From the NCBI GenBank assembly GCA_963809875.1, contig CAWELC010000005.1, positions 152,836 to 216,835 on the forward strand: a stretch of DNA of 64,000 nt, read 5' to 3'. Made by a program: the position numbers and the translations under genes. This DNA comes from an uncultured delta proteobacterium (lineage in GTDB: Bacteria; Desulfobacterota; Zymogenia; Zymogenales; Zymogenaceae). This document shows, in pieces, positions 24,172 through 48,921 of this stretch (position 1 is the stretch's first letter; every line of letters starts with the position of its first letter). The notes under the pieces are model-generated. The model was not told where the DNA came from, made no database searches, and saw nothing but the letters and a program-made list of their open reading frames with translations.

Positions 24172-25746
24172 CTAAACGCTCTTCAGGGAATTGCGGTATC
24201 TTTCGACCGCGTCCATGGGGGCACCATCAAATTTCAGTGCTCCCTGATCTATCCATAGCGCTCGCGTGCAGACCTGCTGTACGAAATTCATGTCGTGAGT
24301 TACCACGATTACCGCTTCGGCAAAGTTCACTAATTCCTGTATCCTCGTTACCGCGGCCTCATAAAAGGTTATATCGCCTACGCCCAGCGCTTCGTCTATT
24401 ATCAGGAAATCAGGTTGGATCATCGAAGCGATACTGAACCCCAGCCTTGATTTCATACCACTTGAGAAGTTCTTTATCGGCTCATGTATGAATTTCTTTA
24501 GACCCGAAAATTCAACGATTCCGGGATACATTTCCGTTAGCACCTTCCTGGGAATTCCCAGAATCATACCATTAAGAAAGATATTGTCGTTTGCGGTCAA
24601 TTGAGGATTGAACCCCGTTCCATAACCGAGCAGCGCGTTGACTTCACCCTTCATCCATATGGATCCGCCGTCAGGTTTGAATATCCCGTTGATCACTTTG
24701 CAGAGGGTCGTTTTCCCTGAGCCGTTGCGCCCTATTATCCCGATGATTTCGCCCCTTCGCACCTCGAACGTTACATTCTTCAAAGCCCAGAAGATCTTCT
24801 TTCTCCTATCGAAGAAGGTCTTGTATTTTTCCAGCCCATGATACTTCTTTCTCGGTCTGGATAGATGGAACGCTAATGACACATTCTTGGCCGAGAGAAT
24901 CGTTTCTCCTGTTGAGGTCTTCTTTGTCTTGCTGAAAAGAAGCTTCTTCTTTGGAGTGATCTTCTGGAATTTCTCCCTGTATTCTTTCACTATCTGCGCC
25001 GGGGATCCGGCCGAAAAAACCCTCCCGTCTTCAATCCACAGGGTGCGGGTACAAAACCGTTCGACAAAACCCATGTTGTGCGTAACAACGATGACCGTCT
25101 TTGACCTCCCGATGATCTCTTTCATTCTCTTGCCGGCTCTTTCGCTGAATTCAAGATCTCCGGCACCTAATACCTCGTCGATAACAAGGATGTCCGGTTC
25201 GATGGATGATGCAATGCTAAAGCTCAATCGTGACTTCATTCCGGTTGAATAGTACTTCAGCGGTTGATCGATGAAACCGCCGATACCGGAGAACCGTATT
25301 ATGCCCGAAGCGAGCGCGCGGGTCTCTTGCTTCGAAAAACCGAGCATCATCCCGTTCAAAAAGATATTTTCTCTCCCGGTAAGCTCCGGATTAAAACCGG
25401 CACCCAGAGAGAGAAGTGCCGATACGGAACCCTTGACGACAATATCGCCCTCATCCGGCCTCAGCAGTCCCGATAAGACCCTGCACAGTGTTGTCTTACC
25501 AGCCCCATTTCGACCGATGATTCCCAGAATCTCTCCCTCGGTGCAGCAGAAACCGAGGTCACGGAGGGCCCAGAATTCACTTTTCCTGTTTCTTTTGAGC
25601 AGCACGTTATACGTGAAAGACTGAAGATCTTCCCGTCTGTTTCCGATAAGATACTTCACTCCTATATTTGACGCTTCTATGGAATAGGGGCGGTGGAGCG
25701 CCCGTTCCTCCGGACATTGAATGTTATCTTGCTTCGATACAATCAT
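24172..25746 (-). CDS. ABC transporter ATP-binding protein with two tandem nucleotide-binding domains (polysaccharide/O-antigen export type, Wzt/TagH/KpsT-like)
   Basis: 524 aa. Two Walker A motifs (GRNGAGKTT and GRNGSGKTT), two ABC signatures (YSTGMKSRL and FSSGMKSRL) and two Walker B motifs (ILVIDEV and FLIIDEA). Confidence 0.75.
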   Translation of the reverse strand: MIVSKQDNIQCPEERALHRPYSIEASNIGVKYLIGNRREDLQSFTYNVLLKRNRKSEFWALRDLGFCCTEGEILGIIGRNGAGKTTLCRVLSGLLRPDEGDIVVKGSVSALLSLGAGFNPELTGRENIFLNGMMLGFSKQETRALASGIIRFSGIGGFIDQPLKYYSTGMKSRLSFSIASSIEPDILVIDEVLGAGDLEFSERAGKRMKEIIGRSKTVIVVTHNMGFVERFCTRTLWIEDGRVFSAGSPAQIVKEYREKFQKITPKKKLLFSKTKKTSTGETILSAKNVSLAFHLSRPRKKYHGLEKYKTFFDRRKKIFWALKNVTFEVRRGEIIGIIGRNGSGKTTLCKVINGIFKPDGGSIWMKGEVNALLGYGTGFNPQLTANDNIFLNGMILGIPRKVLTEMYPGIVEFSGLKKFIHEPIKNFSSGMKSRLGFSIASMIQPDFLIIDEALGVGDITFYEAAVTRIQELVNFAEAVIVVTHDMNFVQQVCTRALWIDQGALKFDGAPMDAVERYRNSLKSV

Positions 25747-25751
25747 GGTTT

Positions 25752-26537
25752 TTACAGCAGTTTGATAATTTTATGCTCGTTTCTACTGTAGTAGAATAGC
25801 ACAAGAACCGATATCAATAGGGAAAGAGAGCCTATTGATAATAGTGCGACGAAATCCGGTGCGTGATTATGCAGGAATATATCGCGGTAACTTCCCAGAA
25901 AGTGTGTCACGGGATTGAGTTCTATCAACCACCGGAGTCTTTTCGGAAAGGAGTCCTCAAGCCATATCACGGGAGAAGCGAAGAACCACAGTCTCATGAT
26001 ATGCCTGACTATGTTGTCAAAATCCCTTACCTTGACGCCGAGAAACGCCAGGGGAAATGATATCGCCGTCATGAAAAAGAGCTGCATAGCCATGACAAAC
26101 GGAAGCCAGAAAAGGTTCGGTCCGGGGAGTATCTTGAAGAATATCAGGAAGAGAGAGATGATCACGAGTCCGAAACCGAAATTGATCAATTGGGATAACG
26201 TGGCGCCGATGGGAAACAGTATCTTCGGCAGATAGATCTGCGTTATGAGCCCGGCTTCACTGTGTATGGAGCGCTCGGAGGTGCTCACGGTTGAATCAAA
26301 CCAGCGCCACACGACCATTCCGACTACCAGATAGCTCCCGTAGTCGCTGCCGCCCCTCTTGAACACTACCGAAACCAGAAAGTAGTAGATCGCAATGCCG
26401 AGCAGAGGGTCCAGGAGCCACCAGAAATATCCCAGGAAGGTGTTCCTGTGCTGCGCTTTGAGATTTGAGACGACCAGATACAGGAGGAGGTCTTTCCTCT
26501 TATAGAGGTTCCTACAGTACGTGGCGATGTCACCCAT
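25752..26537 (-). CDS. ABC-2 type transporter permease (Wzm/KpsM-like)
   Basis: 261 aa with 6 predicted TM helices. ABC-2 N-terminal pattern (LLYLVVSNLKAQHRNTFLGYFW). It lies directly upstream of the ATPase gene. Confidence 0.75.
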   Translation of the reverse strand: MGDIATYCRNLYKRKDLLLYLVVSNLKAQHRNTFLGYFWWLLDPLLGIAIYYFLVSVVFKRGGSDYGSYLVVGMVVWRWFDSTVSTSERSIHSEAGLITQIYLPKILFPIGATLSQLINFGFGLVIISLFLIFFKILPGPNLFWLPFVMAMQLFFMTAISFPLAFLGVKVRDFDNIVRHIMRLWFFASPVIWLEDSFPKRLRWLIELNPVTHFLGSYRDIFLHNHAPDFVALLSIGSLSLLISVLVLFYYSRNEHKIIKLL

Positions 26538-26620
26538 TTCGGGCTATTTCCTCAGTGTATTCATTTTGCATGGATGAGCAGGGCCAGTCCCTGCTCCTTC
26601 GCTTATACGCATGCACGAAA

Positions 26621-27307
26621 TTAGTCGAAAAAGCGAAACCATAGAATGGAGATTACGGCCGTAATGCCGTCAATCCAGGTGATCTTTTTCCCTTCCTTAT
26701 ATCCGCGGCCGGAATATCTGATGGGTACTTCACAAATGCGGAACTTTTTCTTCGCGATCTTTGCTGTGAATTCCGGCTCAAAACCAAACCTATTTGATTT
26801 CAGCTCTAATTGGGCAATGACATCCCTCTTGAAAACCTTATAGCATGTCTCCATGTCGGTAAGGTCGATATCGTTTAATGCGTTCGATAATAGAGTCAAA
26901 AACCGATTGCCTACCATATTCCAGAAGAACATGACCCTGCGAGGTCTCCCCGAAAACCTCGACCCATATACGACATCGGCGACGCCGTCCAGTATCGGCC
27001 GCACAAGCTCTGGGTAATCCTGCGGGTCATATTCAAGATCTGCGTCTTGTATGATGATTATATCCCCGGCTGCAATGGCAAATCCGCTTCGTAACGCCGC
27101 ACCCTTGCCTTGATTATGATCATGGTATATCGCTTTTATGTTATCCCTCGTTTTTTCTATTTCCTGTATTTTCTCACGACTTCCGTCTTTCGAAAAGTCA
27201 TCTATAATAATGATCTCTTTATCGATTTGTGCTGCCTGCACCTTTGCGATGATCCGCTCAATAGTCGCTGCTTCGTTATAAACCGGCATAATTACTGAAA
27301 TTTTCAC
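26621..27307 (-). CDS. GT2 family polyprenyl-phosphate glycosyltransferase (DPM1/ArnC-like)
   Basis: 228 aa. SVIMPVYNE, IIIDD(F)S.DGS and QDADLE (DxD) motifs. Confidence 0.75.
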   Translation of the reverse strand: MKISVIMPVYNEAATIERIIAKVQAAQIDKEIIIIDDFSKDGSREKIQEIEKTRDNIKAIYHDHNQGKGAALRSGFAIAAGDIIIIQDADLEYDPQDYPELVRPILDGVADVVYGSRFSGRPRRVMFFWNMVGNRFLTLLSNALNDIDLTDMETCYKVFKRDVIAQLELKSNRFGFEPEFTAKIAKKKFRICEVPIRYSGRGYKEGKKITWIDGITAVISILWFRFFD

Positions 27308-27405
27308 TATACATCCTTAAGACCACAGACCAACTCCTCGGTCAAGTCAGCGGCACGGCCATTCATGGTCCTTGGCCCGCGCCATCGTTACGAAAATGAG
27401 GTTTT

Positions 27406-29643
27406 CTATTCCTTTCCTCTCATATTGTAGAGAACTACACCGGCCCCGGTCGAGGAAAACGAATCCAATTTTATTTCATTTCTTTCTAGCTCAGCGAGGA
27501 TGGTATCGATGTGAAACTCCTTACTGCTCTTTCCCTTGAAAACGTGCGAATAGACCAGCCATACCCTTTCACGCCCCCGTGTCTTCTTATATATATCTTT
27601 GGCATAGTCCTGAGGGTTCTTTTTCGCATATATGCCTTTCACATATTCCATGTCCTCTAAAGAGAATCTCTTAAGGTAATAACTGTAGGCCCGTCCCGAA
27701 TTATGAAAGCAGTAGACCAGATCGCCCTCCCTCCTATTCTCCGAGATATACTTCAGGACCGGCTTGATTTCCTCGGGATCGAGCAGGACGGGCCTAAAGA
27801 AGGCGACGGAGCCGTCGGGCACGGGTGCGAACAATAATAGGATGAGAAACAGCCCGAAGATCATCGTCGACGTCCTCTTCTGTAATATTTCGACTATCGT
27901 CCAGAGCCCGTCTACTAAGACGAGGATTGCGATTGGGAGTATGAATAGTATGAGCCTCTGATAAAAGGGATACAAATGGAGCGCGGACAGCAATAGAGTT
28001 ACGATAATAGGCGAGAGCAAAAGGAGCGCCTTCCTCTTGTCGGCAACGAGGAGGGATGCTATACCGCTCAGGGAAACAGCCATCCAGAGCACGGGATAGG
28101 CGAGATGGAGGGAGAATTCAGAAGCAAAGACGTCATAAAATGAATTGAGGTACCATTTCGCATTTTCGAGAGAGACAGGTGCGGGCGCGAAATATTCCGC
28201 CCAGTATTTCTTCAAGAAGTCGTTTCCTGTGCCATATTTCAGACTTATGAAGTAGCTTAGTGCGAAGCTCATAAGACATACGAAAAGGATAATCGCCAGA
28301 GACCTAAACTGCTTACCATTCTTCTCGATGAGTGAAGACAGCATTAAGGTGGCGCCTACACCGGCCAGAACGAAGACGACGGGATGTGAAAACCAGATAA
28401 TCGTTGCCCCACAAACCGACAAAATGGCAACTGTCTTTGCCGTATAGGCTTTGTTTGAGTAATGGAAGAATATTAGATACATGAGGATAACTGCAAAGAC
28501 GTCCCCGGTATACTGCTTCACTACCGACGAGTAGTAGATCAATGATGGGGTTATTGAGAAGAGCAAGAGGCTTATCGGAACGGCCGGGGGCTTGAGTACC
28601 TGTTTGGATACAGCATAAAAGAGAGGGACCGAGGCAATGCTACAGATCAGTGGGAACAGACGCAAAGAATAGTCGCTGTCACCGAAGATACAGGTCATGG
28701 CTTTGAGGGATACGAGAAATCCGATGGGGGCAACTTGGCTGTAATTCAAAGGGCCGAAGAGGTCCAACAGATTGTACCTGAGTATATTTCCAGCAAGGGC
28801 CAGTTCGTCAAGCCATAGGGACCGATCATACTGGTACTGGTAGAGCCGAAATAGGATGCCAAGGGTTACTATGAACCAGATGAATGACTTAGACGCGTAC
28901 AGTCTCTTTGGAAAATCAACGAAGCTTTGGGAAAAACGCGGAATGGTTTTTCCGTCCGTCGATCTCTGACTTCCTCGTGAAGTCCTTAACTCTGAAAGCG
29001 TCATGCAGAGGAGCACGGAGAAAATGAACGAAAGCCCGATGAGATAGAATCGACCTATTCTGTTGCCTGATTCAATACTACCAATGAGGTTGCCGGACAG
29101 TTCAAAATGTGGATCGGTCCCCGTTGAAATGAGATACATTGCCTCATCTCGAAGATCCGGACCATTAATCTCGCTGGCCGATGTAATATTCCCGGTCAGT
29201 TCTCCGGCGCTGATAAAAGTGTATTCACTCCTGAGCCGGCTCTTCACCGTGATCTTCTTTATCGCGATGAGACCCTCGTGATGCCCCGGATCTATTCTGA
29301 TAGATTTAAGTTTCTTTGAAGGTAAATCAAAGACCAGTTCGGAAAATTCCCCGGGCTCATTGTACCGGCATTTTATGGAGTCTTTCTCGTTATAGCCCTT
29401 TCCGATGCTGTAATAAACCTGATAGGTGTCCGATACGGGTCCCTTTACGGTGATAGTGAGCGTTATAGGGGAATGGAAGTCTTTAAAGAGGAATAGTAGA
29501 GAAAAAAGTATGAAAAGAAGGAGTGGCGCTAAATAAACATAACCGTTCTTGAAGTATCGAATAATACCCTTTCTTATGGCCGATCGCACCTCTATATCGA
29601 AAAAATCGCCTTTATCTACCATATCTGCCGGGAGCATCTTCAA
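27406..29643 (-). CDS. Large polytopic membrane protein, GT-C-like (GT39/ArnT/PMT-like) glycosyltransferase candidate
   Basis: 745 aa. A central region of about 11 TM helices has a DE-containing first loop (WLDELA), as in ArnT/PMT-type transferases. It pairs with the adjacent DPM1-like GT2. The N- and C-terminal soluble extensions are not assigned. Confidence 0.5.
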   Translation of the reverse strand: MKMLPADMVDKGDFFDIEVRSAIRKGIIRYFKNGYVYLAPLLLFILFSLLFLFKDFHSPITLTITVKGPVSDTYQVYYSIGKGYNEKDSIKCRYNEPGEFSELVFDLPSKKLKSIRIDPGHHEGLIAIKKITVKSRLRSEYTFISAGELTGNITSASEINGPDLRDEAMYLISTGTDPHFELSGNLIGSIESGNRIGRFYLIGLSFIFSVLLCMTLSELRTSRGSQRSTDGKTIPRFSQSFVDFPKRLYASKSFIWFIVTLGILFRLYQYQYDRSLWLDELALAGNILRYNLLDLFGPLNYSQVAPIGFLVSLKAMTCIFGDSDYSLRLFPLICSIASVPLFYAVSKQVLKPPAVPISLLLFSITPSLIYYSSVVKQYTGDVFAVILMYLIFFHYSNKAYTAKTVAILSVCGATIIWFSHPVVFVLAGVGATLMLSSLIEKNGKQFRSLAIILFVCLMSFALSYFISLKYGTGNDFLKKYWAEYFAPAPVSLENAKWYLNSFYDVFASEFSLHLAYPVLWMAVSLSGIASLLVADKRKALLLLSPIIVTLLLSALHLYPFYQRLILFILPIAILVLVDGLWTIVEILQKRTSTMIFGLFLILLLFAPVPDGSVAFFRPVLLDPEEIKPVLKYISENRREGDLVYCFHNSGRAYSYYLKRFSLEDMEYVKGIYAKKNPQDYAKDIYKKTRGRERVWLVYSHVFKGKSSKEFHIDTILAELERNEIKLDSFSSTGAGVVLYNMRGKE

Positions 29644-29806
29644 GTTTTGTTTTTCTCAGCCTTGGGGCATATCGGATTATGGGAAGCGTTGTAACACAGC
29701 CGTCCTTCAGCGCGCAAGCGAATAACGCAATTCGCACTTTTTGGAGTGGTCTTAAAGCATCTTAAGTTGATCTGCAAAGGCTTAATCAGTACACGGGTCT
29801 ACACGC

Positions 29807-30508
29807 TTACGTACCGACTCCTCGTTTTTGAGCATAGCCCCAATTGTTCTTTATCTCACAATTTGTGTACCCGGGGTGTGCTGCAACAAGTAGTTCAAAA
29901 ACTTTCAGTACTTGGGGAGTTTCGCGATAGTCGGCCGGCATCTTCGTTACATGCGGTTTGTCTTTAAGAGCTTTGCTTGTGGAATATGACCAGTTGATAT
30001 CATCGAAAATGAGCCAGCCTCCGTCCTTCAGAAATCTATCCACCAGGAAAAAAGCGAAGCCGGTTACGTCCCACGTATGCCCCCCGTCAAGATAAGCGAG
30101 ATCGAACTCTTTGTCCATGCCTTCCTCAAGCCAACGCATAAGTCGCCACGTAAAAGAGCAAGGTTCTCTGATCAGCTCAACCATGTGTGCCAGATTGCAT
30201 TGGTCAAGCAGTTCCTCAGCTTTCGGCGACCGGTCATGAGAGCTTTCAAGATCTATTGAAACAACACGATTGCCACCAGCTTCCTGCATCGCTCCTGCCA
30301 TATAGCACGTGGATACACCATGGGCAAAGCCCAGCTCAAGAATTTTCCTTGGACGATGCGTCAAGATAAAATCCGTCATTCGCTGTGCCTGCTCTATACG
30401 CATGAAAGGAGTATCGCGAACGACGGCTTTAATGTCATTGATCTTCATGTCGTCCCCACAGCCAACTTTGGGTCTTCTCTTCAGGGAAGCCACAAGCACG
30501 TATTTCAA
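29807..30508 (-). CDS. Class I SAM-dependent methyltransferase
   Basis: Rossmann-like motif ILELGFAHGVST and an acidic residue after beta-2 (VSIDLE). The true start is possibly MKINDIK at 30448. Confidence 0.6.
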   Translation of the reverse strand: MKYVLVASLKRRPKVGCGDDMKINDIKAVVRDTPFMRIEQAQRMTDFILTHRPRKILELGFAHGVSTCYMAGAMQEAGGNRVVSIDLESSHDRSPKAEELLDQCNLAHMVELIREPCSFTWRLMRWLEEGMDKEFDLAYLDGGHTWDVTGFAFFLVDRFLKDGGWLIFDDINWSYSTSKALKDKPHVTKMPADYRETPQVLKVFELLVAAHPGYTNCEIKNNWGYAQKRGVGT

Positions 30509-30544
30509 GAACTTAACACGGTCCGTAAGAACAACTATCCAGGA

Positions 30545-33500
30545 CTAAGGTGTTTTCCGCAACGCTTTAACGAAAGGTTGAAGGCGATCCCTGTGCCGGG
30601 AGTATCCGAAGTTTCGCTTAACGAAATCCCGGGCGATTTTGACTCTTTCCCGATAGAAAGCATGGTCACGGTGGAGCTGCTTAACAATATCCCGGACTTG
30701 TGAGGGTCGGGCGTAGAGCGCCGCCTCTTTAAACAGAGGACGAAAATGTTCAGGCAATATAACCGGAACGCCGGCTGCCATCGCTTCCAGCGGGGCGCGG
30801 GCGAAGGCTTCGACAGAATCCTGATGATGGAAATATACGAATACGTCGATTTCGGACAGAAACTCCCTTGGATGCATTGAATCAAACGGATATACGTCCC
30901 AATTGGGCGGGACAAACCCCACTACTTTTTGTACCGCTTTCGCTCCTCCCAGGATTTTGACCTGAAACCTGTCATCATCCGGGTAGGCGTCAAGGAGATC
31001 TTTCGGATTACCGGGCCACTTGACGTATTGATCCCGGGAGTGCCTGCCGATGACCGGGCGATCGTGTCTGCATTTGGCAGAAGGGGATGACCATTCGTCC
31101 ACATTGATAATGTTTACCCAGTCCGTATCCGCAAGGTTTATGATTTCTTTAACATCTCGTTCCTTAAGCACCGCACTGCGAGCCTGCGGACCGACGGGGT
31201 GCCAGACCCCTTTCTGTCCAAAGTAGCGCACCAGATTCTCGCTGCACGTTTTAAAATCATACACGCGTTCCCCCGTATCGCCATAATCACGAAAGGGTGA
31301 TCCATTAATTATCACACGTACTTCCAGGGGCAAAACCGCTGGAATATAGTCCTGATAATCCTGCAATGTCGGAGGGCCTCTAACAATAAGCAAATCGCAG
31401 GTTACTTCCTCTCCGTAGACAATCATTTGTACCGAGCGGCCGTCGATTTTGCATCGAACTTTCTCGGTAATGGGACGAGAATATGAGGTACTGTACCGTG
31501 CAATTTGCACCAAGCCCGTGTTGAGTCCGAGAGCTCTTTGAGCCTTGATTTCCTCAGCATTAGAGCTCGTGGTTCCACCGGGAAGCCGAAAATCGGAGGC
31601 GATGATCACGTCAAAATGGCGTTTTTTGGGGTGTTTGGTTTTCTTGCCGGGCCGCATTGGTTCCGGGATGGGAAAGAGCCTGGATTTTTGCGGGAATCCG
31701 TAGAAGAGACTGTCTGCGTTATCATGATAGTGTCTGAAGCTTTCCCGGTATTCCTTGCGTGCGCCCATGTAGTAACCGGGAAAGCCAAACGCAGCGTTTC
31801 CGGTCAAAGAATCTTCGGACTGCCTCGAAAAAGAAAGCGGTCCTGTAGGTAAATGGACGATAGAATCCTGGCCAAACACCTTTAGTAGCCGCTGTAAGAA
31901 CTCGCCATCGCCGCCGAATCGAACACTATCCCAGTAACCGATAGCATCCATCACGGCATTACGCCGAAACATCAGTGAGGACATATTGGACTGGATATAA
32001 AAACCGGGGTTGCCCCGGCGATAGAATTTCAGATTGTCCCTGGCACGGGCCAACTCTGACGTATTGGCTACTACTTCCGGCGTTCTGATCAGATGGAGAG
32101 CCTGTTGCTCAATTTTTTCCGGATGGGACCAATCGTCGGCGCCGTGACAGGTTACGAGAACTCCCGTCGCCAGTTTAAGCGCGATATTCTGCGCCACGTA
32201 AGGACCCTGGTTGATCCTCGATCTAATCAAGTGAACCCTGGCATCTTTCTTAACGTATTTTTCAACTACGTCCACGGTTGCGTCGGTGCTGCAGTCATCA
32301 ACCACCAATACTTCCAGATTGGACCATGTTTGCGCAAGGATAGAATCGAGGGCGGTGCGTATCGTCTTCTCGGCATTATACGCGGGCACTATCACGGTTA
32401 CGGCGGGCGAGCCTCCTGTCGTGTGCGGCTCCTTCCCGGGTTCGTGGCCCGGACGCAGGCAGTCAAAAGGCGGCAGGTCCGAGGCAGCGTCGTGAGAGAT
32501 TTCCGGAATCCCGCATAGATTGAGCGCTTTATTAATACAGTCTATTTGTCCTGAAATCGAAGTCTCCAGGTTCGCGGCGGCAAGGTACAGATCCGCGCTG
32601 GGGCCGGAAGACAGGGCGTCATCGACCGTTCTTTTACCCGCTTCCCGATCCCCCAAGAGATCATAACACTCGCCCTCAAGCAGGGATATCCTCTGAGAAC
32701 GATCCTGAATTTCTTGATCCCGGGCGGCTATCGCAAGCAGTTCCAGGCAGCGCCTGGCATCTTCTTGAGTGTATTTATCGGCATGCCATAAAGCCAGCTC
32801 CCAGGCGGCAAGCCGTTTGAGAGAAGGGTTTTCGTTTTGGCTGGATAAATCCCGCAAGTCCGAAGAGGCTCGCTCCGAAAAGCCCCCGCTTAACATGCGA
32901 CGTCTGAGATATGCTATTAAATCCTGGTCTTTCTTACTTTCCTTTTCTTCCTTAATGAATAGATCTGATGGGCCGCTCGATTGTACCTGCAGGGGCGATT
33001 CGGTTCTCGCTCCTTGATCTCGGCCTGGGCCGAGGGACGACGGGGACTCGTGGCCCGGTGCTGTCGTAGCCGGAGATGAACCAGTGGTTCCTTTCCACCT
33101 GTCTTCATTGACTACTTTCGACCAATCCTCTTTTGCCAGGGTTATCGCCTTCAGGTCGTCACCATGGTGTTTGTGAAGCGCGTCCCGTAGTTCCGGATCG
33201 CAGGGATACCAGACGGCGGGCTTGCCGAAGTACTCCTGAAGATGTTTTGAGCACCGCTCAATGTCATAGACGACGCCTTCAGAGCCTGAATCGTTATCAG
33301 GTGTTTGACTGAAAACAACCGCCACTTCGGTCGCTTCCACATCAGGAATGTGTCGCTGCCGTTCCTGAAGGACACGGGGGTCTCTGACAATTAATGTGTC
33401 ACAGCGGATTGCCTCTCCATAAACGACCATTTGAACCTGATCGCCGTCTATTATTTCGCGGAGGCGCTTATCGTAGTTGATTCTCGGGTTAGTTTCATAC

Positions 33501-35311
33501 CGACATAACTGAATAAGACCGATGCTCAGGCCTTTTCCCTTTCGGGCATTGATTTCCTCAACGATAGGGACGGCATTGTCGGCAATGCGGAAATCCGATA
33601 CGAAGACTATGTTGAAGTGTCGTTTTGAAGAAGGACCGGTATCTCTGCTCGGACGCATGATTTCGGGCACCGGATAGAGCCGGCTCTTTAGCGGAAACTC
33701 GTGGTATAGGTTGGGCGCAACACCATGATGGTACAGGTAGCTTTCACGATATTCCTTTCTCGCGCCCATGTGATAGCCGGGATAACCGAATTTCCTGTTA
33801 CCGGTGAGGGAATCCTGAGAAGCCCTTCCAAATGATAGCGGGCCGGTCCTTATTTCTTCAACTACGCTGTTGCCGAAAACCGTTCTAATTCGTCTATAAT
33901 ACTCCGTATCTGCGCCGAACCTCACGCTATCCCAATAGCCCAATGACTTTACTACCGGTTCCCGACGAAACATAAGGGATGACATGTTCAGGTATATGTG
34001 AAGACCATTGCTGCGCCGCAAAAGCAGCTTCAGTTCATCAGTAGCCCTCACCCAGGTCGAAAGGTTGGCCAGAAGGCGCGTGTTACTAAGTAAATGTCGC
34101 ACATGTATTTCGATCTTCTCGGGATGGAACCAGTCGTCCGAATCATGGCACGTCACGAAATCGCCCGTCGCCTCTCTCAGCGCGATATTGCGCGCGATAT
34201 AGGTCCCCTGGTTGATTTTAGCTCTCATCAACGTAACCCGGTGGTCCTTGGCCTCGTATTCCCTGACAATAGCTGCGGTGTCGTCACTACTGCAATCGTC
34301 AACAACCAGTATCTCCAGGTTCGTCCAGGTCTGCGAAAGGGTGGAATCAAGGGCGGTGCGTATCGTCTTTTCGGCATTGTATACAGGCACTATCACCGTG
34401 ACCTTGGGAGAATCTCCCGCTCCATCCGGTTCTCTTATCGGTTTGCTATGTGGACGCAGGCAGTCAAACGGCGGTAGGTCGGCGTCAGAATCGAAAGAGA
34501 CTTCCGAAAGCCCGGCTAACTCAAACGCCTTATTAATGCAGCCGATTCGGCCCGGGATCGACGTCTCCATGTTCGCCGCGGCAAAGTAGAGATCCGCGCT
34601 GGGGCCCGAAGACCGGGCGTTATCGATTGTCCTTCTTCCTGCCTCCACATCCCCCAATATATCGTGACATCCGGCCTCAACCAGGGCCAGAGAAAGCAGG
34701 CGATGCTGGCTGTTATCACCTTGAGCAGCTATCGCCAGCATGTCCAAACACTGCCGGGCGTCCTCTTTGCTGTATCTGTTGGCGTGCCATAGGGCGAGCT
34801 CCCACGCCGATAGCTTTTGCATGAGAGGCCGTGACCCGTCCATTGCCATAGTGTTCAGGTCCGAATAGGCGCGCTCACGGAAACCAAGGTCAAGGAGCTT
34901 GATCCTTATTTTTTCTATTTCGCGCTCGCTTTTTTGCTGTCGGCTTCTTACACTTCTTTTCCCGGTTGGGGGGGCGCCTAAAGGACCGGCGGGCGGTCTT
35001 TGCCCGTTGCCGCGGCTTGCCCATCCGATCCAATGGATAAGGGGATTGGTGTCAGATTCGGCGATTTCAGGATCGTTGGAGAAATACCCGTCGGTTGAAA
35101 ACGTGGCGCTGGGATCCCTTCCTTCCTTCCACCCGTTTGTCACATAGTGCCAAATCGGGTCTATTCCCGCATTCGATACGTCGGGATATTGGCGCAAATA
35201 GTATTTCTCATCAAACAGGCCGGATTTCCGGATGATATATGCTTCTTTTTGCCAACGTATGTGCTCACCTGCCCTTTCGAAGAGTTCCTTAAGATCCCCG
35301 GCTCGCAGCAT
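30545..35311 (-). CDS. Giant (1588 aa) multidomain glycosyltransferase with an internally duplicated module (2x [TPR-like helical region + GT2 domain + extended C-terminal region]); terminal GT1/GT4-like C-terminal domain
   Basis: Two GT2 cores (VTVIVPVYNAEKTIRTALDS..DDCS.D / VTVIVPAYNAEKTIRTALDS..DDCSTD). The two halves are about 60-70% identical. The antisense ORFs at 32093..32518 and 34094..34477 are mutually similar. The C-terminus is GT1-like (EAMAAGVPVI). Confidence 0.7.
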   Translation of the reverse strand: MLRAGDLKELFERAGEHIRWQKEAYIIRKSGLFDEKYYLRQYPDVSNAGIDPIWHYVTNGWKEGRDPSATFSTDGYFSNDPEIAESDTNPLIHWIGWASRGNGQRPPAGPLGAPPTGKRSVRSRQQKSEREIEKIRIKLLDLGFRERAYSDLNTMAMDGSRPLMQKLSAWELALWHANRYSKEDARQCLDMLAIAAQGDNSQHRLLSLALVEAGCHDILGDVEAGRRTIDNARSSGPSADLYFAAANMETSIPGRIGCINKAFELAGLSEVSFDSDADLPPFDCLRPHSKPIREPDGAGDSPKVTVIVPVYNAEKTIRTALDSTLSQTWTNLEILVVDDCSSDDTAAIVREYEAKDHRVTLMRAKINQGTYIARNIALREATGDFVTCHDSDDWFHPEKIEIHVRHLLSNTRLLANLSTWVRATDELKLLLRRSNGLHIYLNMSSLMFRREPVVKSLGYWDSVRFGADTEYYRRIRTVFGNSVVEEIRTGPLSFGRASQDSLTGNRKFGYPGYHMGARKEYRESYLYHHGVAPNLYHEFPLKSRLYPVPEIMRPSRDTGPSSKRHFNIVFVSDFRIADNAVPIVEEINARKGKGLSIGLIQLCRYETNPRINYDKRLREIIDGDQVQMVVYGEAIRCDTLIVRDPRVLQERQRHIPDVEATEVAVVFSQTPDNDSGSEGVVYDIERCSKHLQEYFGKPAVWYPCDPELRDALHKHHGDDLKAITLAKEDWSKVVNEDRWKGTTGSSPATTAPGHESPSSLGPGRDQGARTESPLQVQSSGPSDLFIKEEKESKKDQDLIAYLRRRMLSGGFSERASSDLRDLSSQNENPSLKRLAAWELALWHADKYTQEDARRCLELLAIAARDQEIQDRSQRISLLEGECYDLLGDREAGKRTVDDALSSGPSADLYLAAANLETSISGQIDCINKALNLCGIPEISHDAASDLPPFDCLRPGHEPGKEPHTTGGSPAVTVIVPAYNAEKTIRTALDSILAQTWSNLEVLVVDDCSTDATVDVVEKYVKKDARVHLIRSRINQGPYVAQNIALKLATGVLVTCHGADDWSHPEKIEQQALHLIRTPEVVANTSELARARDNLKFYRRGNPGFYIQSNMSSLMFRRNAVMDAIGYWDSVRFGGDGEFLQRLLKVFGQDSIVHLPTGPLSFSRQSEDSLTGNAAFGFPGYYMGARKEYRESFRHYHDNADSLFYGFPQKSRLFPIPEPMRPGKKTKHPKKRHFDVIIASDFRLPGGTTSSNAEEIKAQRALGLNTGLVQIARYSTSYSRPITEKVRCKIDGRSVQMIVYGEEVTCDLLIVRGPPTLQDYQDYIPAVLPLEVRVIINGSPFRDYGDTGERVYDFKTCSENLVRYFGQKGVWHPVGPQARSAVLKERDVKEIINLADTDWVNIINVDEWSSPSAKCRHDRPVIGRHSRDQYVKWPGNPKDLLDAYPDDDRFQVKILGGAKAVQKVVGFVPPNWDVYPFDSMHPREFLSEIDVFVYFHHQDSVEAFARAPLEAMAAGVPVILPEHFRPLFKEAALYARPSQVRDIVKQLHRDHAFYRERVKIARDFVKRNFGYSRHRDRLQPFVKALRKTP

Positions 35312-35558
35312 TTCGAGCAGGCGAGACTTTAACTCGGCCTATCTCTCCCTTCCCGTAGAGATTGGCTAACCCTTTGACGTGATGGCCCGGCGGTGAAGTA
35401 TCTTGATAGCTTCCCCCGAAGTTCGACGGATTTCTTTTACCGGGTGATTTCCTCACTTTCCCTGTCTTCTTCCCCGGGTCGCTCCCGACTCCCCGGTTCT
35501 TCTTCGGCCTGGATATCCCCAGAAGCGGCCTGATCTTTGTTTCCCAAAGACGGTGCAT

Positions 35559-37578
35559 CTATCGTTCTCCGGACGGACCGTTGGCCTTAAAAAGACTCAT
35601 AAAATAGCCATACGTTTGCCTACCCTCGCGCTTGTGACAGAACGCCTTGGCCGTTTCTATTCCATTCGTTCGTATCCTGTTTCGAAGCGTACTATTCCTG
35701 ATGAGTCTTATGATCGCTTCCGCGGCCACATCAGGATTTTTCGGCGGGACCATGATGGAGTTTTCCATGTGTCTGGCATATTCGTTGACTCCGCCTACGT
35801 CTGTAACGACGCATGCCGCTCCACACGCCATCGCCTCCAGAGCCGGTCTTCCGAACCCCTGGAAGTCCGATCCGTCAAAAAAAACGTCGGCCTGAGAGTA
35901 CAACATCGCCAGTCTATCCTGGTTACTCACCACTCCCGCGTTTACGAACTCGAAAGGGATCTCGCTTTTCGGAAGATTCTCATCACCGAAGAAAATGATC
36001 TGAGCCTGCGGGATTGCCGTTTTTACCCGCCTGAATGTCTCTATCACGTTATTGTATCCCCTTTTGGGCGTTCGGGGACGCGCCATCGCCATGACGGCGG
36101 GGCAGTCCTTCTTTTCGCTTTCCCTCGGGTAAAAAAAACCGAGATCCATGCCCAGGCGGATCTTGTTAGTATTATAGTCGTGGCACGCTAACATCGCTTT
36201 GAGCCAGTCGGATTTTACGATCTTATTGGGAATAAGCGCGTATGAGTTGATAACCGCCTTTCTCTTCTCGATTTCCTCCTCGGGATAGAACCAGCTCTCA
36301 TAATCCTGGATAAAATATACCGGTATCATCGATGGGTTTTTCTTGAGAAGCTCCGGTACCCAATAGGCGGTATTCCAAAGGGTCGCCACCACGATATCGG
36401 TGGGAGGAAATTCCTCGAGTAATTCCTTCTCACTAGTATAGACAATCGGCTCAAACAGCATTTTCCAGTCATCCAGCTCCGGATACTTAAAGAGCGTGGC
36501 AATTCGCGCTTCGACCCCGTGAAGGATCAGCTCGTTTACCAGCTGAACGACGGAAAGCACCCCCCCGGCAAGGATCATACGGTGCAGTAAATAGGTGACC
36601 CTGAGACGATCGGGTCTTGTTACTCTACTCAAGAACTCTTTCCTGATCGCGGGTTGACGATAACTGGATAATGACCGTATTCCTCTATAGAGCTCCCTGG
36701 CGGATGTGCCCCATTCTCTCTTTCTCAGCTCCCTCCTGACCTTTCTCCCGACGATCCTCACAGCGTAATCTAAATTGAACCGGGACGGGTACCCTGCCTC
36801 GGTCCGTATATAACGTAAAGGATCATTCTTCAGGAAGAGCTTATACTGTTTTCGGTACTCTTTTTTCCACCTCCCATTGAATATCGCTATATTTCTTTTA
36901 AATCGCTCATCCCTTGAAAAGAATGACGCTCTGCCCTTGTGGTAAACGAACGTATCATCGCATACGACCGTTCGGTATCCATCGGTCGTCAGGCGCATAC
37001 AGAGATCAGACTCCTCGCAATACCCCCTGTCGTAGATTTCATCGAAATAGCCGATCTTCTCTAATATAGCGCGCCGCAGGAGCATGCAGAACCCCACTCC
37101 GGTGACGATATCGGGGTATTGAGCCCTGGATCGAGAGGAGGCAAGCTCATTCATACCGAAGATATTCGCGCCGGGTGCGATTGCGAGATCAATATTGGCG
37201 GCGAAGTTCGTCAGGGGGTTCACCGACGCGATCCTTGGGTCCGATGACGCGCATCGAATCATCTTGCTTAGCCATCCGGGGGTGACAATCGTGTCGCTGT
37301 TCAGAACAACGATATATTCCGATCCCCCGATCTTCATCCCCTTATTGCTGCTGCGCAGGAAGCCGATCCTCCGTTCTATTGGAATAGAGTGATACATGTC
37401 GATGTTTTTCCGAAAAGGCCCGGAGGTACTCCCGAACGTGCCCATCGCTATTATCATCTATGATTATCAAGCTATAGGGCACATCTCTCGTGTAGTTAAT
37501 GATCGAGTCGAGGCAATCCTTAGTGTAGGCCATTGCATTGAAGACAGGCAGCACAATATTGCAGATAGGCTTGATCAT
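35559..37578 (-). CDS. Bifunctional GT2 (N-terminal) + GT1/GT4-like (C-terminal) glycosyltransferase, apparent frameshift near 37400
   Basis: The GT2 N-terminus ICNIVLPVFN..IIIDDNSDG is in ORF 37342..37578. The remainder (VVLNSDTIV..; C-terminal EAMACGAACVVTDVGG) is in ORF 35559..37457 in another frame. Confidence 0.6.
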
Positions 37579-37777: not shown

Positions 37778-39442
37778 TCATTTCATCGATTTGCGTTCCC
37801 TTCTTTTTTGCACATCGATAATCTTTGCTTCAACCTTATAGTTCTCTCCCGGTCCCGGTGCTGCAATTACTTCGTCGATACCATCAGCGTCCAAATCACC
37901 GGAGGCGACGTTGAGCCCGTATTTCAGTTCAAATGGGAATGCTTTGAAGATCGATTCCCACCTGCTGTTGAATATACGCAAATGATCGCCCGAGTACTTC
38001 GATGGCCCCGGGCCGGTAATGATTTCGTCCAAACCATCGCCGTCTATATCTCCCGATGCGAGATTAATCCCATAAATTGCCCCGGGAATGTAGGCCAGGA
38101 CCCAGGGATTTTGGATGAACGAGTTAGTACTATTGTCAAAATCCAGATACGCAACGTACGCCCTGTAGACCCGTATATGGGCAAGGCCGAGGAGTATCTC
38201 ATCCCGGCCGTCGCCGTCGATATCACCGCTCCCCACCTGGAGGCCGTGTCTGATCTTCTTGAAATAATCGTCTTGGTCAACGAAATCGATAATCTCAAAC
38301 TCACGCACTATCCGGCCGTTTCCGTTGAACACCCTGATCACCGGTTTATAGCCCTGACCCGGCCCCGGCGCGGTTATGATCTCGTCCAATCCATCGCCGT
38401 CGATATCTCCCGCGGCGACATTGGCTCCGAACTTCTTGCACGGAAAAGCCGTAAAATGTGCGATCTCATGTCCCTTACCATCGAGGACTTTGATCAGCGT
38501 ATCGTTTGTGTAATGCGGGCCCTTGGCTGCAATAATCTCATCAATCCCGTCACCGTTGATGTCTCCGGCGGCAATGAGTACGCCATAGCGGACCTTCTTT
38601 TCGAAAGCCCGAAAGGTATTAAGGACGACGCCTTTCTCATCACGTACCAAAATCTCTGTATCATTGTCTGGATGGGGGCCTTTGCCGATCAATAGTTCGT
38701 CTTTTCCATCTCCGTTAACATCGCCGGCGGCAACCGTCGCGCCTCTTCCATAGCTATTGTACAGCTCGCCTCCGGGAAGCCCGATCTGGAAATTACTGAT
38801 CAGTCCGGGGATTAGAAAAACGAAGAACGCCGTAGCCACGGTGGCATGCGTCAGACCTAACGTGAATATATTCCTGTTTCTCAGAAACAAGATGCAGAAG
38901 AGCAAGCCGCCTAGAAGCGTTAACAGCATGAGCTTCCAATCGGGGGCGTGCATAAGCGAAAAAAGAACAGCAGCAATCGGGACCGCAATGATGTTCGATC
39001 GAGAAATCTCCTTGATTCTCAAAAGGAGAAAGCTATTGAGAAAGAACTGCTGGAAGATACCCCCACCTATATACGTTGAAAAATTGGCGAGAATCGACAT
39101 GAATGTGCGAGGCATGAATATCGGATCGAAGAAAAGAAATATGGAGATAATAATTGCGATTGAAAGGAGAGTGGCGATGCCGCATTCTTTTAATGATCTT
39201 GGGATATTGTCAAACCGGATCCCTATTTCCGGGAGGGTATCGGCGTGAACAAGAAAACTGAGCGAGAAAACGAGAATACAAACGCTGCCCGAGAAAATCG
39301 AATAATATAATCCAAATACACAAAGTCGAAAAGGCCACACTATTGAAAAATAGGCGCCGAGCACGATCAGGAGTTCCACAAGGGAGTACAACCTCGGTTT
39401 ACTGGAATAGAATTGCCTTGCGTAAGACAAAGCTTCGTGCAC
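37778..39442 (-). CDS. Fusion protein: N-terminal CPBP (CAAX-protease/Abi-like) intramembrane domain + C-terminal FG-GAP/integrin-alpha-type beta-propeller repeats
   Basis: The N-terminal 230 aa are polytopic with FSLMH and ..H...N motifs of CPBP proteases. The C-terminus has at least 6 repeats of the calcium-binding GD(I/V/L)(N/D)GDG.DE(I/L) pattern. Confidence 0.55.
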   Translation of the reverse strand: MHEALSYARQFYSSKPRLYSLVELLIVLGAYFSIVWPFRLCVFGLYYSIFSGSVCILVFSLSFLVHADTLPEIGIRFDNIPRSLKECGIATLLSIAIIISIFLFFDPIFMPRTFMSILANFSTYIGGGIFQQFFLNSFLLLRIKEISRSNIIAVPIAAVLFSLMHAPDWKLMLLTLLGGLLFCILFLRNRNIFTLGLTHATVATAFFVFLIPGLISNFQIGLPGGELYNSYGRGATVAAGDVNGDGKDELLIGKGPHPDNDTEILVRDEKGVVLNTFRAFEKKVRYGVLIAAGDINGDGIDEIIAAKGPHYTNDTLIKVLDGKGHEIAHFTAFPCKKFGANVAAGDIDGDGLDEIITAPGPGQGYKPVIRVFNGNGRIVREFEIIDFVDQDDYFKKIRHGLQVGSGDIDGDGRDEILLGLAHIRVYRAYVAYLDFDNSTNSFIQNPWVLAYIPGAIYGINLASGDIDGDGLDEIITGPGPSKYSGDHLRIFNSRWESIFKAFPFELKYGLNVASGDLDADGIDEVIAAPGPGENYKVEAKIIDVQKRRERKSMK

Positions 39443-40320
39443 TAGTGAGAAATCCTTTTTACAGTATTACGCAGTTGAAGTGTCAATACTTCTATAGATG
39501 TCATGAAGAAACGCAATAGAATCCCGCAGGCGACAAGAATATGAGTGAATGGATTCCTCCGAAGATACTTTCTATAGTACAACCACATGCCCCGGTGTCT
39601 TTCATAATTGATTTTTATTGTCGGTACGGTCCTGCTTATGCCGATTTCATGTGAGACTGATACTTCGGGATGATATACTACTCGATATCCGGCTCTTGCC
39701 AATCGATTGCAGAAATCCACGTCTTCATGGAAAAGAAAGTAATCTTCGCAAAAACCCCCAATTGCGTCAAAGACATCCTTTCTTACTATCATGGCGCATC
39801 CCGAGACCCAATCTACCTGCTGTGATTTATCGTCGCTCATTATAGGATTAAGATATTCTCTGGAAAACCTGTTGCTCGGAACCAGCCTGGTGAGAATAGA
39901 GCCTCGATTGAATAGAGCAGTTCTTAAGGTTGGAAAATTTCGAGCAGAAAGCTGTCTTGTTCCATCGCTCGGATTCAGGATCTTAGGACCCAGAACGCCG
40001 ACATGATCCGTCGAGAGATAGCCAGGAATATTTCTAAGGTCATGCGTTAGTATATACGAATCCGGATTCAGCAAGAAGATTATGTCTTTGCTCGCATGTT
40101 TTATTCCGAAATTAGCACCGGAGCCATAACCCATATTCTTTTCTAATTCTATGAGTCTGACGTTGTTAAACCTGCTCCTTATTAATTGTTTTGTCATGTC
40201 CCGGGAATTATTGTCCACGACGATAATCTCATACGGGATTCCTTTGATCGACGAAATATGTTCAAGGCACGCCGTGATGGTTCTCTCGCTGTTGTGAGTT
40301 ATTATTACAAAGCTTATCAT
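39442..40320 (-). CDS. GT2 family glycosyltransferase
   Basis: 292 aa. SFVIITHN, IVVDNNSRD, a DxD-like motif and a C-terminal hydrophobic tail. Confidence 0.75.
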   Translation of the reverse strand: MISFVIITHNSERTITACLEHISSIKGIPYEIIVVDNNSRDMTKQLIRSRFNNVRLIELEKNMGYGSGANFGIKHASKDIIFLLNPDSYILTHDLRNIPGYLSTDHVGVLGPKILNPSDGTRQLSARNFPTLRTALFNRGSILTRLVPSNRFSREYLNPIMSDDKSQQVDWVSGCAMIVRKDVFDAIGGFCEDYFLFHEDVDFCNRLARAGYRVVYHPEVSVSHEIGISRTVPTIKINYERHRGMWLYYRKYLRRNPFTHILVACGILLRFFMTSIEVLTLQLRNTVKRISH

Positions 40321-41312
40321 CGCGCACCACCATTTGGAAAAAGTTTTGCCCTTATTTTTCCAAGAAACCAGCCGTCTGCTATTAAAGATCTAACATATCG
40401 ATTTGTGACCTTCCTTTTTTCCTGGATAACACGTCTCTTCTTTACGGTACCAATAAAGCGGATTATAAACGAAAACTTCGCACTGAAAAAGGAAATCAAT
40501 TCCCCTTGCATCGTGAAATATAGGAATGCTGATATGTTGTAAATAACATGCATCGGCAAGTGAGAAACCAAGAGGCTCAGCGGCATGTTCTTGAAAAAAA
40601 CATATTCCAGATTCCTTTGTCCGTAGTAACTGAAAACCCGGTTAATGTCCTTAATTGTTCCACTCGTCTTGTGGTATGCGATTGCTTTCGGACAATAAAT
40701 GCATTTATAACCCGCCAGCTGAGCACGAAAGCTTAGATCCACGTCCTCACACATAATGAAGAAATCTTCATCAAACAGCCCGATTTCTTGCAGCATCTCC
40801 CGACGATATACCACGGCCGCGGCGCACGCGCCGAAGACGTATTCGAAGTCGTTGTAGGAGTCTATCCTTTGCCCAAGTCCGCGTTTTGCGTTGACCCCCC
40901 CTCTCGTATAGAGATCTCCGGCTGTATCAATGGCATCCCTTCGATAGAAATTGACTATTTTGGAAGCGCAGAAACCGGCGTCCGGATAGAGCTTGAGACA
41001 TTCAAGAGACTCTTTCAGCCAGTCCTCATGTGCGACCGCGTCGTTGTTGAGGAGTGCTACAAAGTCTCCCGCACCCGATCTGATTCCAATATTGTTGGCA
41101 CCGGTAAAACCACGGTTTTCCTTCAAAGGTATTATTTCTGTGTCCCCGTACCTACTGGAAACATACTCTACAGACCCGTCATCAGACCCATTGTCTACAA
41201 GAACAATTCTTTTGTCCCGGTGGCTTTGACCGTATACTGAATCCAGGCAATCAGACAAGAAATGCTTTCCATTCCAATTTACGATTACCACGTCTACTTG
41301 ACTGTCTTTCAT
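40317..41312 (-). CDS. GT2 family glycosyltransferase (rhamnosyltransferase-like)
   Basis: 331 aa. VVIVNWNG and VLVDNGSDDGS motifs. It is the first gene of the minus-strand glycan cluster and overlaps the next gene by 4 nt. Confidence 0.75.
   Translation of the reverse strand: MKDSQVDVVIVNWNGKHFLSDCLDSVYGQSHRDKRIVLVDNGSDDGSVEYVSSRYGDTEIIPLKENRGFTGANNIGIRSGAGDFVALLNNDAVAHEDWLKESLECLKLYPDAGFCASKIVNFYRRDAIDTAGDLYTRGGVNAKRGLGQRIDSYNDFEYVFGACAAAVVYRREMLQEIGLFDEDFFIMCEDVDLSFRAQLAGYKCIYCPKAIAYHKTSGTIKDINRVFSYYGQRNLEYVFFKNMPLSLLVSHLPMHVIYNISAFLYFTMQGELISFFSAKFSFIIRFIGTVKKRRVIQEKRKVTNRYVRSLIADGWFLGKIRAKLFPNGGAR

Positions 41313-46241: not shown

Positions 46242-48921
<2,680 letters not shown>

Follow-up and report, generated by a model that had tools for sequence, protein, structure and literature searches.

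The window analysed here, a stretch of 64,000 nucleotides from contig CAWELC010000005.1 of an uncultured delta proteobacterium, encodes within a glycosyltransferase gene cluster a 554-residue protein that joins a membrane domain of the CPBP superfamily to a beta-propeller built of FG-GAP repeats (Table 1). In the membrane domain the two glutamates that characterize active CPBP/CAAX proteases are replaced by two glutamines (QQ), and these are invariant among orthologs. We favour the model that the protein is a non-proteolytic CPBP-fold module with a Ca2+-binding propeller which, together with the glycosyltransferases GT2a and GT2b encoded next to it, would act as an accessory or scaffold factor on an exported or lipid-linked glycan. 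We assign this model a probability of about 0.55, and our confidence in any specific ligand is lower.

Table 1. Coordinates of the fusion gene, its parts and the surrounding glycan cluster in the window
Feature	Position	Strand	Basis
Fusion gene, QQ-type CPBP domain with FG-GAP propeller, 554 residues; GTG start 39442-39440, stop 37780-37778	37778..39442	-	Open reading frame list
Membrane domain, residues 1-215	38798..39442	-	AlphaFold models, Foldseek, charge counts
PF02517 (Rce1-like/CPBP) match, residues 117-202 = profile positions 5-90 of 93	38837..39094	-	Pfam
Degenerate motif 1, Q131-Q132-F-F-L-N136 at the EExxxR positions	39035..39052	-	Translation, profile register, invariance
Intact motif 2, F161-S-L-M-H165 (FxxxH)	38948..38962	-	Translation, conservation
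Half-degenerate motif 3, H199-A-T-V-A203; His kept, Asn/Asp position is Ala	38834..38848	-	Translation, profile register
Linker, residues 216-232; low model confidence at 218-226	38747..38797	-	AlphaFold model
Six-bladed FG-GAP beta-propeller, residues 233-554	37781..38746	-	Pfam, DSSP, motif scan, Foldseek
GT2b glycosyltransferase, 292 residues, partner of the fusion gene	39442..40320	-	Open reading frame list, ortholog comparison
GT2a glycosyltransferase, 331 residues, first gene of the GT2a-GT2b-fusion module	40317..41312	-	Ortholog comparison
Rest of the co-directional glycan cluster, GT2-GT4 gene to Wzt/TagH-like ATPase gene	24172..37578	-

An intact gene for a rare architecture

The fusion gene is a single open reading frame (ORF) without interruption. 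An identical protein is present in a public collection on a 1.04-Mb contig and on an independent short contig, and 19 further proteins of 534-573 residues, 30-51% identical to the target, are collinear with it through the linker. With the target they make up a set of 20 orthologs drawn from NCBI, ENA, JGI and Logan assemblies. The frameshift in the adjacent GT2-GT4 gene indicates that indels do occur in the region, so that the fusion might in principle have arisen artificially from two genes joined by an indel, as an earlier, sequence-only reading of this DNA had itself considered, or might be a decaying pseudogene. Both versions of this explanation are refuted by the unbroken ORF, by the identical protein on the second contig and by the 20 orthologs from independent assemblies, which have lengths of 534-573 residues, the same architecture and a conserved linker. 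Thus, the gene is intact and real, and it is not a merger of two genes.

The architecture of a CPBP-type membrane domain followed by an FG-GAP propeller is rare. In this respect the database distribution agrees with the sequence-only reading, whose description of a fusion with at least six FG-GAP repeats is likewise borne out by Pfam (PF02517; PF01839 six times; PF13517) and by structural models. A literature search found no paper that names both "CAAX protease" and "FG-GAP".

Catalytic motifs of the membrane domain

Active CPBP/CAAX proteases are defined by the motifs EExxxR, FxxxH and HxxxD/N (PMC12260438). In MmRce1 (4CAD), the nucleophilic water is bridged by E140 and H173, the oxyanion hole consists of H227 and N231, and R145 seals the cavity at its base (PMC5874806). 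The register of these motifs in the fusion protein was fixed via the coordinates of the PF02517 profile, to which the target aligns without net insertion or deletion. Q131 and Q132 fall on profile positions 19 and 20, N136 on 24, H199 on 87 and A203 on 91. Two probes, a synthetic CPBP consensus (107 bits) and a human RCE1 sequence whose exact letters are unverified (63 bits), both place Glu-Glu at positions 19/20 and the H...N pair at 87/91; R14 of the consensus falls on position 24 by arithmetic. As a query, the consensus retrieved nothing from the PDB by phmmer and nothing from plasmids by tblastn. The RCE1 probe did not retrieve 4CAD by phmmer, and hhalign aligned it to the family profile in the motif-3 region only, at low probability.

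Of the three motifs defining active proteases, only the second is present in the fusion protein. In motif 1, which reads I-F-Q131-Q132-F-F-L-N136, Glu-Glu has become an invariant Gln-Gln and Arg has become Asn, while motif 3 has Ala in place of Asn. The sequence-only reading had reported an FSLMH motif together with an H...N motif, and had regarded loss of the Glu-Glu/His residues as fatal to the CPBP assignment. The former motif is there, but the latter is not, as no Asn follows H199; and from the Glu-Glu/His set the glutamates are lost whereas both histidines are kept. The name "intramembrane protease" and the processing role attached to it are unsupported: in Rce1, activation of the nucleophilic water falls to the first Glu, and half of the oxyanion hole is contributed by the Asn. 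We infer from these replacements that protease activity has been lost. A change from Glu to Gln is isosteric and is commonly used by experimenters to inactivate acid/base catalysis.

A large subfamily with Gln-Gln in place of Glu-Glu

Among the 20 fusion orthologs, residues Q131, Q132, F161, H165, E23, H66, G74, R76, D78, N79, R142 and N191 are invariant, H199 is nearly so (Gln in two), and 17 polar or aromatic positions of the membrane domain do not vary. Relatives were collected by an exhaustive HMMER search with a profile of the membrane domain against 1.84 billion representatives, which gave 2,888 proteins at E <= 1e-3, 1,273 at <= 1e-10 and 60 at <= 1e-30. The motif positions were scored in 146 relatives, namely those listed 50%-identity representatives in which motif 1 is covered and which do not derive from the first search. 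The equivalent of E140 is Gln in all 146, and that of E141 is Gln in 141, Glu in four and Gly in one. At the position of R145 there is Gln, Leu or Asn, never Arg, and at that of N231 Ala, Gly, Ser or Thr, never Asn or Asp. The equivalent of H173 is His in 144 of 145 relatives, and that of H227 is His in 135 of 144 and Gln in the other nine. Glu is also found at the position of Glu23 in 95 of 111 aligned independent relatives. All of ten sampled relatives lie above the PF02517 threshold (25-41 bits), and none of the ten reaches any NCBIfam cutoff. As the list of relatives was ranked by a profile built from QQ sequences, the claim extends to at least about 150 QQ clusters and not to all 2,888 proteins.

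Judged by this pattern of conservation, the Gln-Gln state is a conserved condition and not a product of random decay, and CPBP proteins with Gln-Gln apparently form a large, undescribed subfamily. Limited literature searches, which did not cover the superfamily survey of Pei et al. 2011, found no description of this variant. No canonical EE-type CPBP protein was found in an ORF scan of the 1.3 Mb of recovered loci. Two other searches added little: a contig scan with an FG-GAP pattern returned propeller-only proteins, the choice of pattern making it uninformative on the fusion, and a search of a word-indexed protein database with the membrane-domain profile returned only three proteins.

Most members of the family stand alone (107 aligned relatives, about 200-280 residues), and the rest carry various outward-facing C-terminal domains. 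These are canonical FG-GAP propellers, degenerate propellers of ~530 residues without Ca2+ motifs, or one of at least three unrelated domains of about 110-140 residues without a Pfam match. One such domain, of ~126 residues, recurs with the signature 'NKST..WDS...HPV..SYH' in proteins P0140-P0143, P0145, P0147, P0178 and P0207 (loci L089-L103); two more types are exemplified by P0150/P0167 and P0205/P0218. The membrane domains of the FG-GAP group and of the degenerate-propeller group are only about 30-33% identical, and each is closer to members without a propeller. Hence, the propeller fusions may be ancient or of independent origin.

The same conservation can be read in favour of an intramembrane hydrolase, acting on proteins or on acyl or ester bonds, that is still active and uses His165 and His199 together with a carboxylate from a new position, such as that of Glu23, while the propeller recruits the substrate. 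Both cavity histidines and the FxxxH motif are almost invariant, Glu23 does not vary within the fusion clade and is frequent among the more distant relatives, and the strict Gln-Gln pair, unlike the random decay seen in SpbR (HELYMR, FIYLD, QIVAI), implies a precise function. Moreover, the Arg of motif 1 is dispensable in the presumably active SilX (EExxxQ). We nevertheless consider this explanation unlikely. Four positions have changed together (the equivalents of E140, E141, R145 and N231), including the Glu that activates the water and one of the two oxyanion-hole residues, and the cluster contains no substrate-like gene, be it for a protein with a C-terminal sorting signal or for a bacteriocin. 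Similarity to the CPBP-type C-terminal sorting proteases MrtJ, MrtS and myxosortase, which are described as glutamic-type proteases, is weak, with NCBIfam scores of 16-23 bits compared with cutoffs of 75-130.

Two more specific assignments were rejected. A role as sorting protease of the MrtJ/MrtS type is contradicted by these low scores and by the absence of a gene for a CTERM-tagged substrate near the target. For a bacteriocin-immunity (Abi) function, bacteriocin, transporter or regulator genes of the corresponding kind are missing from the cluster.

Fold and topology of the membrane domain

The PF02517 match is significant (E 9e-10; 39.2 bits compared with a gathering score of 22.4). AlphaFold2 models, built with the 20-sequence alignment, reached a mean pLDDT of 85.5 for the full-length protein and of 90.5 for the membrane domain alone. 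They show an N-terminal amphipathic helix at residues 2-14 followed by seven transmembrane (TM) helices at 16-35, 44-66, 80-104, 114-147, 150-163, 169-189 and 192-210. The top PDB fold matches of the membrane domain in Foldseek are the two chains of Rce1 4CAD, with probabilities of 0.98 and 0.91 and TM scores of 0.52-0.53, but with E values of only 0.3-0.8. With its profile match and its Rce1-type polytopic helical fold the domain belongs to the CPBP/Rce1 superfamily. It shares with MmRce1 the order of the motif-bearing helices (TM4, TM5 and TM7), the FxxxH motif and the His of motif 3, and differs from it in having QQxxxN for EExxxR and HxxxA for HxxxN/D. The target also has seven TM helices instead of eight, which places its C terminus, bearing the 320-residue propeller, opposite the N terminus.

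Among the non-catalytic proteins of this fold, APH-1 (5A63_C) appears far down the Foldseek list at a probability of 0.05, and neither single-sequence nor profile searches gave a PDB sequence match to SpdC, SpbR, LnsB or APH-1. The target is not an ortholog of any of these four proteins, though it may work like them. The sole PDB sequence matches of the membrane domain in phmmer and profile searches, to BtuC permeases (E about 1e-3), probably reflect hydrophobic composition and were set aside as uninformative.

Over the 20 orthologs, the N terminus and loops 2-3, 4-5 and 6-7 together carry a mean of 12.5 Lys and Arg residues, compared with 4.45 on the opposite side. By the positive-inside rule, this predicts an N-in/C-out topology with the propeller outside the cytoplasm, where the sequence-only reading had also placed it. 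The cavity of MmRce1 opens on the side that faces away from both termini (PMC5874806). Taking this geometry together with the identical numbering of the motif-bearing helices and the N-in/C-out topology, we infer that the cavity mouth of the target faces outward, beneath the propeller. Such an outward cavity would resemble the extracellular groove described for SpdC (bioRxiv 10.1101/2020.05.21.109470).

The propeller

Residues 233-554 match PF01839 (FG-GAP) in six stretches (E 4e-27; 94 bits compared with a cutoff of 22.1) and also PF13517 (E 6.5e-20; 71.9 bits). A motif scan located six complete Dx[DN]xD[GA]xxE loops at residues 241, 294, 346, 407, 465 and 516. In the model, DSSP assigns 24 strands, mostly with pLDDT > 85, that make up six four-stranded blades, each with one predicted Ca2+ loop between its first two strands, and these loops are conserved in all six blades across the orthologs. 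FG-GAP repeats with DxDxDGxxD/E Ca2+ loops are likewise found in integrin alpha, CRTAC1 and YesW/YesX. The integrin alpha propeller has seven blades, only some of which hold Ca2+, and that of YesW has eight, whereas in the target each of the six blades has a complete predicted loop. Another difference lies in the anchor, which in the target is a polytopic CPBP domain in place of a signal peptide or single TM helix.

In Foldseek, the model of the whole protein has matches with a probability of 1.0 to the PL11 lyases YesW/YesX, to CRTAC1 and to numerous integrin alpha chains. This raises the question whether the CPBP-like domain is a mere anchor for a propeller that works as a Ca2+-dependent polysaccharide lyase or hydrolase, or as a lectin, and trims, releases or binds the exported glycan. 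In line with such a role, the rhamnogalacturonan lyases YesW/YesX rank ahead of the integrins, the Pfam lambda-carrageenase propeller family is matched with 30.7 bits (cutoff 26.8), the QQ module is paired elsewhere with several unrelated outward-facing domains, and one related locus (L085, see below) has a gene for a GH38 mannosidase as a neighbour. Yet the carrageenase and RGL11 matches span a single FG-GAP repeat only (residues 292-327 and 389-423), and identity to YesW is 15% with a TM score of about 0.29. Conservation in the propeller concerns Gly, Pro, the Asp/Glu residues of the Ca2+ loops and structural aromatics, with no obvious catalytic set, and if the membrane domain were a simple anchor, its 17 invariant positions with polar or aromatic residues would not be needed. 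We therefore look upon a purely anchoring role of the membrane domain as rather unlikely.

The glycan cluster

The fusion gene is the third in a co-directional series that runs from 41.3 to 24.2 kb and comprises GT2a, GT2b, the fusion gene, the frameshifted GT2-GT4 gene, and genes for a 1588-residue multi-domain glycosyltransferase, a methyltransferase, a 745-residue PMT_2/GT-C protein, a 228-residue AglJ/PpgS-like polyprenyl-phosphate glycosyltransferase, a Wzm-like ABC-2 permease and a Wzt/TagH-like ATPase. The setting in a glycosyltransferase operon described by the sequence-only reading is thus correct, with the two GT2 genes directly upstream and further glycosyltransferase genes downstream. 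At "cacTAGTGcac" the TAG stop of GT2b and the GTG start of the fusion gene share 1 nt, and there is an AGGA about 10 nt further upstream; this arrangement indicates that translation of the fusion gene is coupled to that of GT2b. The combination of Wzm/Wzt export with a polyprenyl-phosphate-sugar synthase and an enzyme of the GT-C type implies that the polymer undergoes chemistry outside the cytoplasm, and the cluster fits an ABC-transporter-dependent glycopolymer pathway with extracytoplasmic decoration. Genes for a PAS-HisKA_3 kinase and a LuxR regulator adjoin the cluster divergently.

Several genes of the cluster have features of their own. The GT2-GT4 gene (35559-37578, minus strand) is split: a 78-residue ORF at 37342-37578 holds the N terminus of the GT2 domain (PF00535 positions 2-62), and a 632-residue ORF at 35559-37457 carries the domain on from PF00535 position 60 in a different frame. 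Near 37380, where the shift is located, there is no long homopolymer; the shift reflects either a real pseudogene or an assembly indel. The 1588-residue protein (30545-35311, minus strand) has one GT2 domain near residue 305, another near residue 970, and a GT1/GT4 domain at its C terminus; it could be a polymerase-type enzyme with several domains as in ABC-dependent O-antigen or teichoic-type pathways. The ATPase (24172-25746, minus strand, 524 residues) has two ABC_tran stretches, around residues 60-260 and 320-510, and for Wzt/TagH it is unusual that a single chain carries the nucleotide-binding domain twice.

Extent of the link to glycan synthesis

A GT2a-GT2b-fusion module occurs on unrelated contigs at three loci, namely in the window and at loci L085 and L002. 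The gene order in L085 is that of the window, and next to the module lies the GH38 mannosidase gene mentioned above. In L002 the fusion gene precedes GT2a and GT2b, with PMT_2 and ABC-2 genes nearby. Among the three loci the GT2a proteins are 59-70% and the GT2b proteins 53-60% identical, compared with 44-49% for the fusion proteins. At a fourth locus (L001) the fusion gene precedes genes for a methyltransferase, WbsX, RgpF and glycosyltransferases. The tie to a glycan proposed by the sequence-only reading therefore holds for the window and for a recurrent module but is not universal, as glycan clusters are found at only four of about 11 fusion-ortholog loci. Some of the other orthologs follow a GatB-AsmA-IF-2B-PolyA_pol series without glycosyltransferases, once as a tandem paralog pair, and others lie between a GDSL lipase gene and thyA. 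The tandem pair (P0010 and P0018; 563 and 562 residues) is located downstream of PolyA_pol on a 27.9-kb contig of JGI sample 3300075153. In one sub-clade of the fusion proteins the glycan link is real and found repeatedly, but it does not extend to the whole family. Recurrent neighbours of the stand-alone QQ proteins (NDH-2, TetR, TPR, NfeD and unknowns) look like soil-lineage synteny and were discarded as a functional clue.

This distribution could also mean that the location in a glycan cluster is incidental or lineage-specific and that the protein regulates or scaffolds a protein partner unrelated to glycan synthesis, for example as a signal peptidase inhibitor or a histidine kinase modulator (compare SpbR, SpdC and Abx1). 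Glycan clusters are not the setting of most fusion orthologs or of any stand-alone relative sampled, the known degenerate CPBP proteins act by protein-protein contacts, and the kinase and regulator genes are located divergently beside the cluster. Translational coupling to GT2b and the repeated finding of the three-gene module in two gene orders speak against this view, and the Pfam domains of the adjacent 363-residue kinase are all of cytoplasmic type (PAS, HisKA_3, HATPase). On balance, a partner unrelated to glycan synthesis appears improbable to us.

Proposed function

According to the model that we favour, the protein would have a seven-TM CPBP fold whose polar intramembrane cavity keeps both histidines and carries Gln-Gln at the site of the catalytic Glu-Glu, with conserved Arg and Asn residues around them. 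The short linker would connect this module with a Ca2+-loaded propeller on the outer face of the cytoplasmic membrane, under which the cavity would open outward. The cavity may bind a ligand, plausibly the polyprenyl-(pyro)phosphate end of the exported lipid-linked glycan or a TM segment of a partner, while the propeller would bind the glycan chain or a partner protein. The fusion protein could then function as an accessory or scaffold factor of the adjacent ABC-transporter-dependent pathway, along with the two co-conserved GT2 enzymes, and as a single-chain analogue of the SpdC-SagB arrangement. The strict Gln-Gln pair and the retained cavity histidines argue for a conserved ligand-binding function as opposed to random decay.

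SpdC (LyrA) of S. aureus scaffolds the glucosaminidase SagB, controls the length of the glycan product and was proposed to bind the lipid-pyrophosphate carrier (bioRxiv 10.1101/2020.05.21.109470). The likeness to our model lies in a CAAX-protease-like polytopic protein that is non-catalytic and positions an extracytoplasmic glycan-active domain during processing of an envelope glycan polymer. By contrast, the partner SagB is a separate protein whereas the extracytoplasmic domain of the target is fused to it, the motifs of SpdC are degenerate where the target has a conserved Gln-Gln, and no sequence or Foldseek match to SpdC was recovered. SpbR binds the signal peptidase SpsB as an inhibitor and controls the length of lipoteichoic acid (PMC12260438). 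LnsB (lipoprotein N-acylation) and APH-1 (a gamma-secretase subunit) are further non-catalytic cases. With SpbR, LnsB, APH-1 and Abx1 the target shares a CPBP fold with lost catalytic motifs, in those proteins linked to membrane scaffolding or regulation, and with the APH-1 type it also shares cavity residues that are kept without the glutamates. These proteins, however, occur unfused and in restricted lineages, with an irregular decay of their motifs, whereas the target belongs to a broad subfamily with a strict Gln-Gln/His/His set and modular outward-facing C-terminal domains.

Several observations weigh against the proposed glycan-linked role. About seven of 11 fusion-ortholog loci have no glycosyltransferase neighbours, and probes detected none beside the stand-alone or otherwise fused QQ proteins in 80 metagenomic loci recovered with membrane-domain patterns. 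No residues for sugar binding or catalysis can be identified in the propeller, and the Foldseek list for the membrane domain does not include SpdC. With its frameshifted GT2-GT4 gene, the cluster may be decaying in this genome. Finally, the invariant Gln-Gln pair could serve some catalytic chemistry and not only binding, and the conserved Glu23 of TM1 might reach into the cavity and restore a carboxylate there.

It is tempting to extend the model to the family as a whole. The QQ modules might constitute a widespread 'substrate-trap' class descended from CAAX proteases, in which the former active-site cavity holds lipid-linked envelope glycans by their polyprenyl-(pyro)phosphate end, or binds some other lipid of the outer leaflet, and the polymer is passed to interchangeable outward domains. 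The propeller fusion would then be the single-chain equivalent of SpdC-SagB and control how an ABC-exported wall glycopolymer is released or handed over, or how long it becomes. This generalization is speculative, and we hold it to be possible though doubtful.

Bacterial CAAX-protease homologs are abundant and mostly labelled as proteases in databases, the JGI label for orthologs of the target being "membrane protease YdiL", while the few that have been studied in depth (SpdC, SpbR and LnsB) are non-catalytic organizers of envelope-polymer synthesis. To this picture we add two features for which we found no description, that is, the strict Gln-Gln subfamily and the covalent fusion to an FG-GAP propeller that is co-conserved with two glycosyltransferases. 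The subfamily comprises at least 146 clusters at 50% identity, possibly > 1,000, and the "protease" annotation should not be spread to it without caution. The propeller fusion with its paired glycosyltransferases represents a concrete, testable system for asking what the cavity of a bacterial CPBP protein binds.

The low-GC island and other genes of the window

The whole glycan cluster and the PAS-HisKA_3 kinase/LuxR regulator pair lie in an island at ~24050-46000 with a GC content of 0.43-0.55 and sharp borders to flanks of 0.59-0.62. IlvD, encoded in the high-GC flank, is 68-75% identical to proteins from metagenome-assembled genomes of Actinomycetota, including Candidatus Anoxymicrobiaceae (class Geothermincolia). 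Taken by itself, this similarity points to a host among the Actinomycetota (Geothermincolia-like); such a host is probably monoderm, and the propeller would there be exposed to the compartment of the cell wall. Those fusion orthologs that have a named source come from a deltaproteobacterial metagenome-assembled genome (Candidatus Zymogenaceae) and from Elusimicrobia, and one fusion-ortholog locus carries LptF/G. Based on the contrast in GC content and on the affinity of the flanking IlvD, which is unlike that of the named fusion orthologs, the island was probably acquired horizontally.

Outside the island, a gene for a Fur-family regulator is located directly upstream of, and overlaps, a gene for a KatG-type catalase-peroxidase (46242-48921, plus strand). 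This furA-katG arrangement is typical of actinobacteria, in agreement with the placement by IlvD. At 61154-63428 (minus strand), two adjacent proteins have CxxxCxxC motifs of the radical-SAM type (GGCNLRCAHC and SRCNLACRHC) and Cys-rich C termini, as recognized by eye; with a region of small Cys-rich ORFs downstream, they may be a peptide-maturase pair. Two overlapping genes at 52142-56498 (plus strand) encode paralogous proteins of about 660-790 residues, which both combine a signal peptide and a Pro-rich stretch with TM segments at the C terminus.

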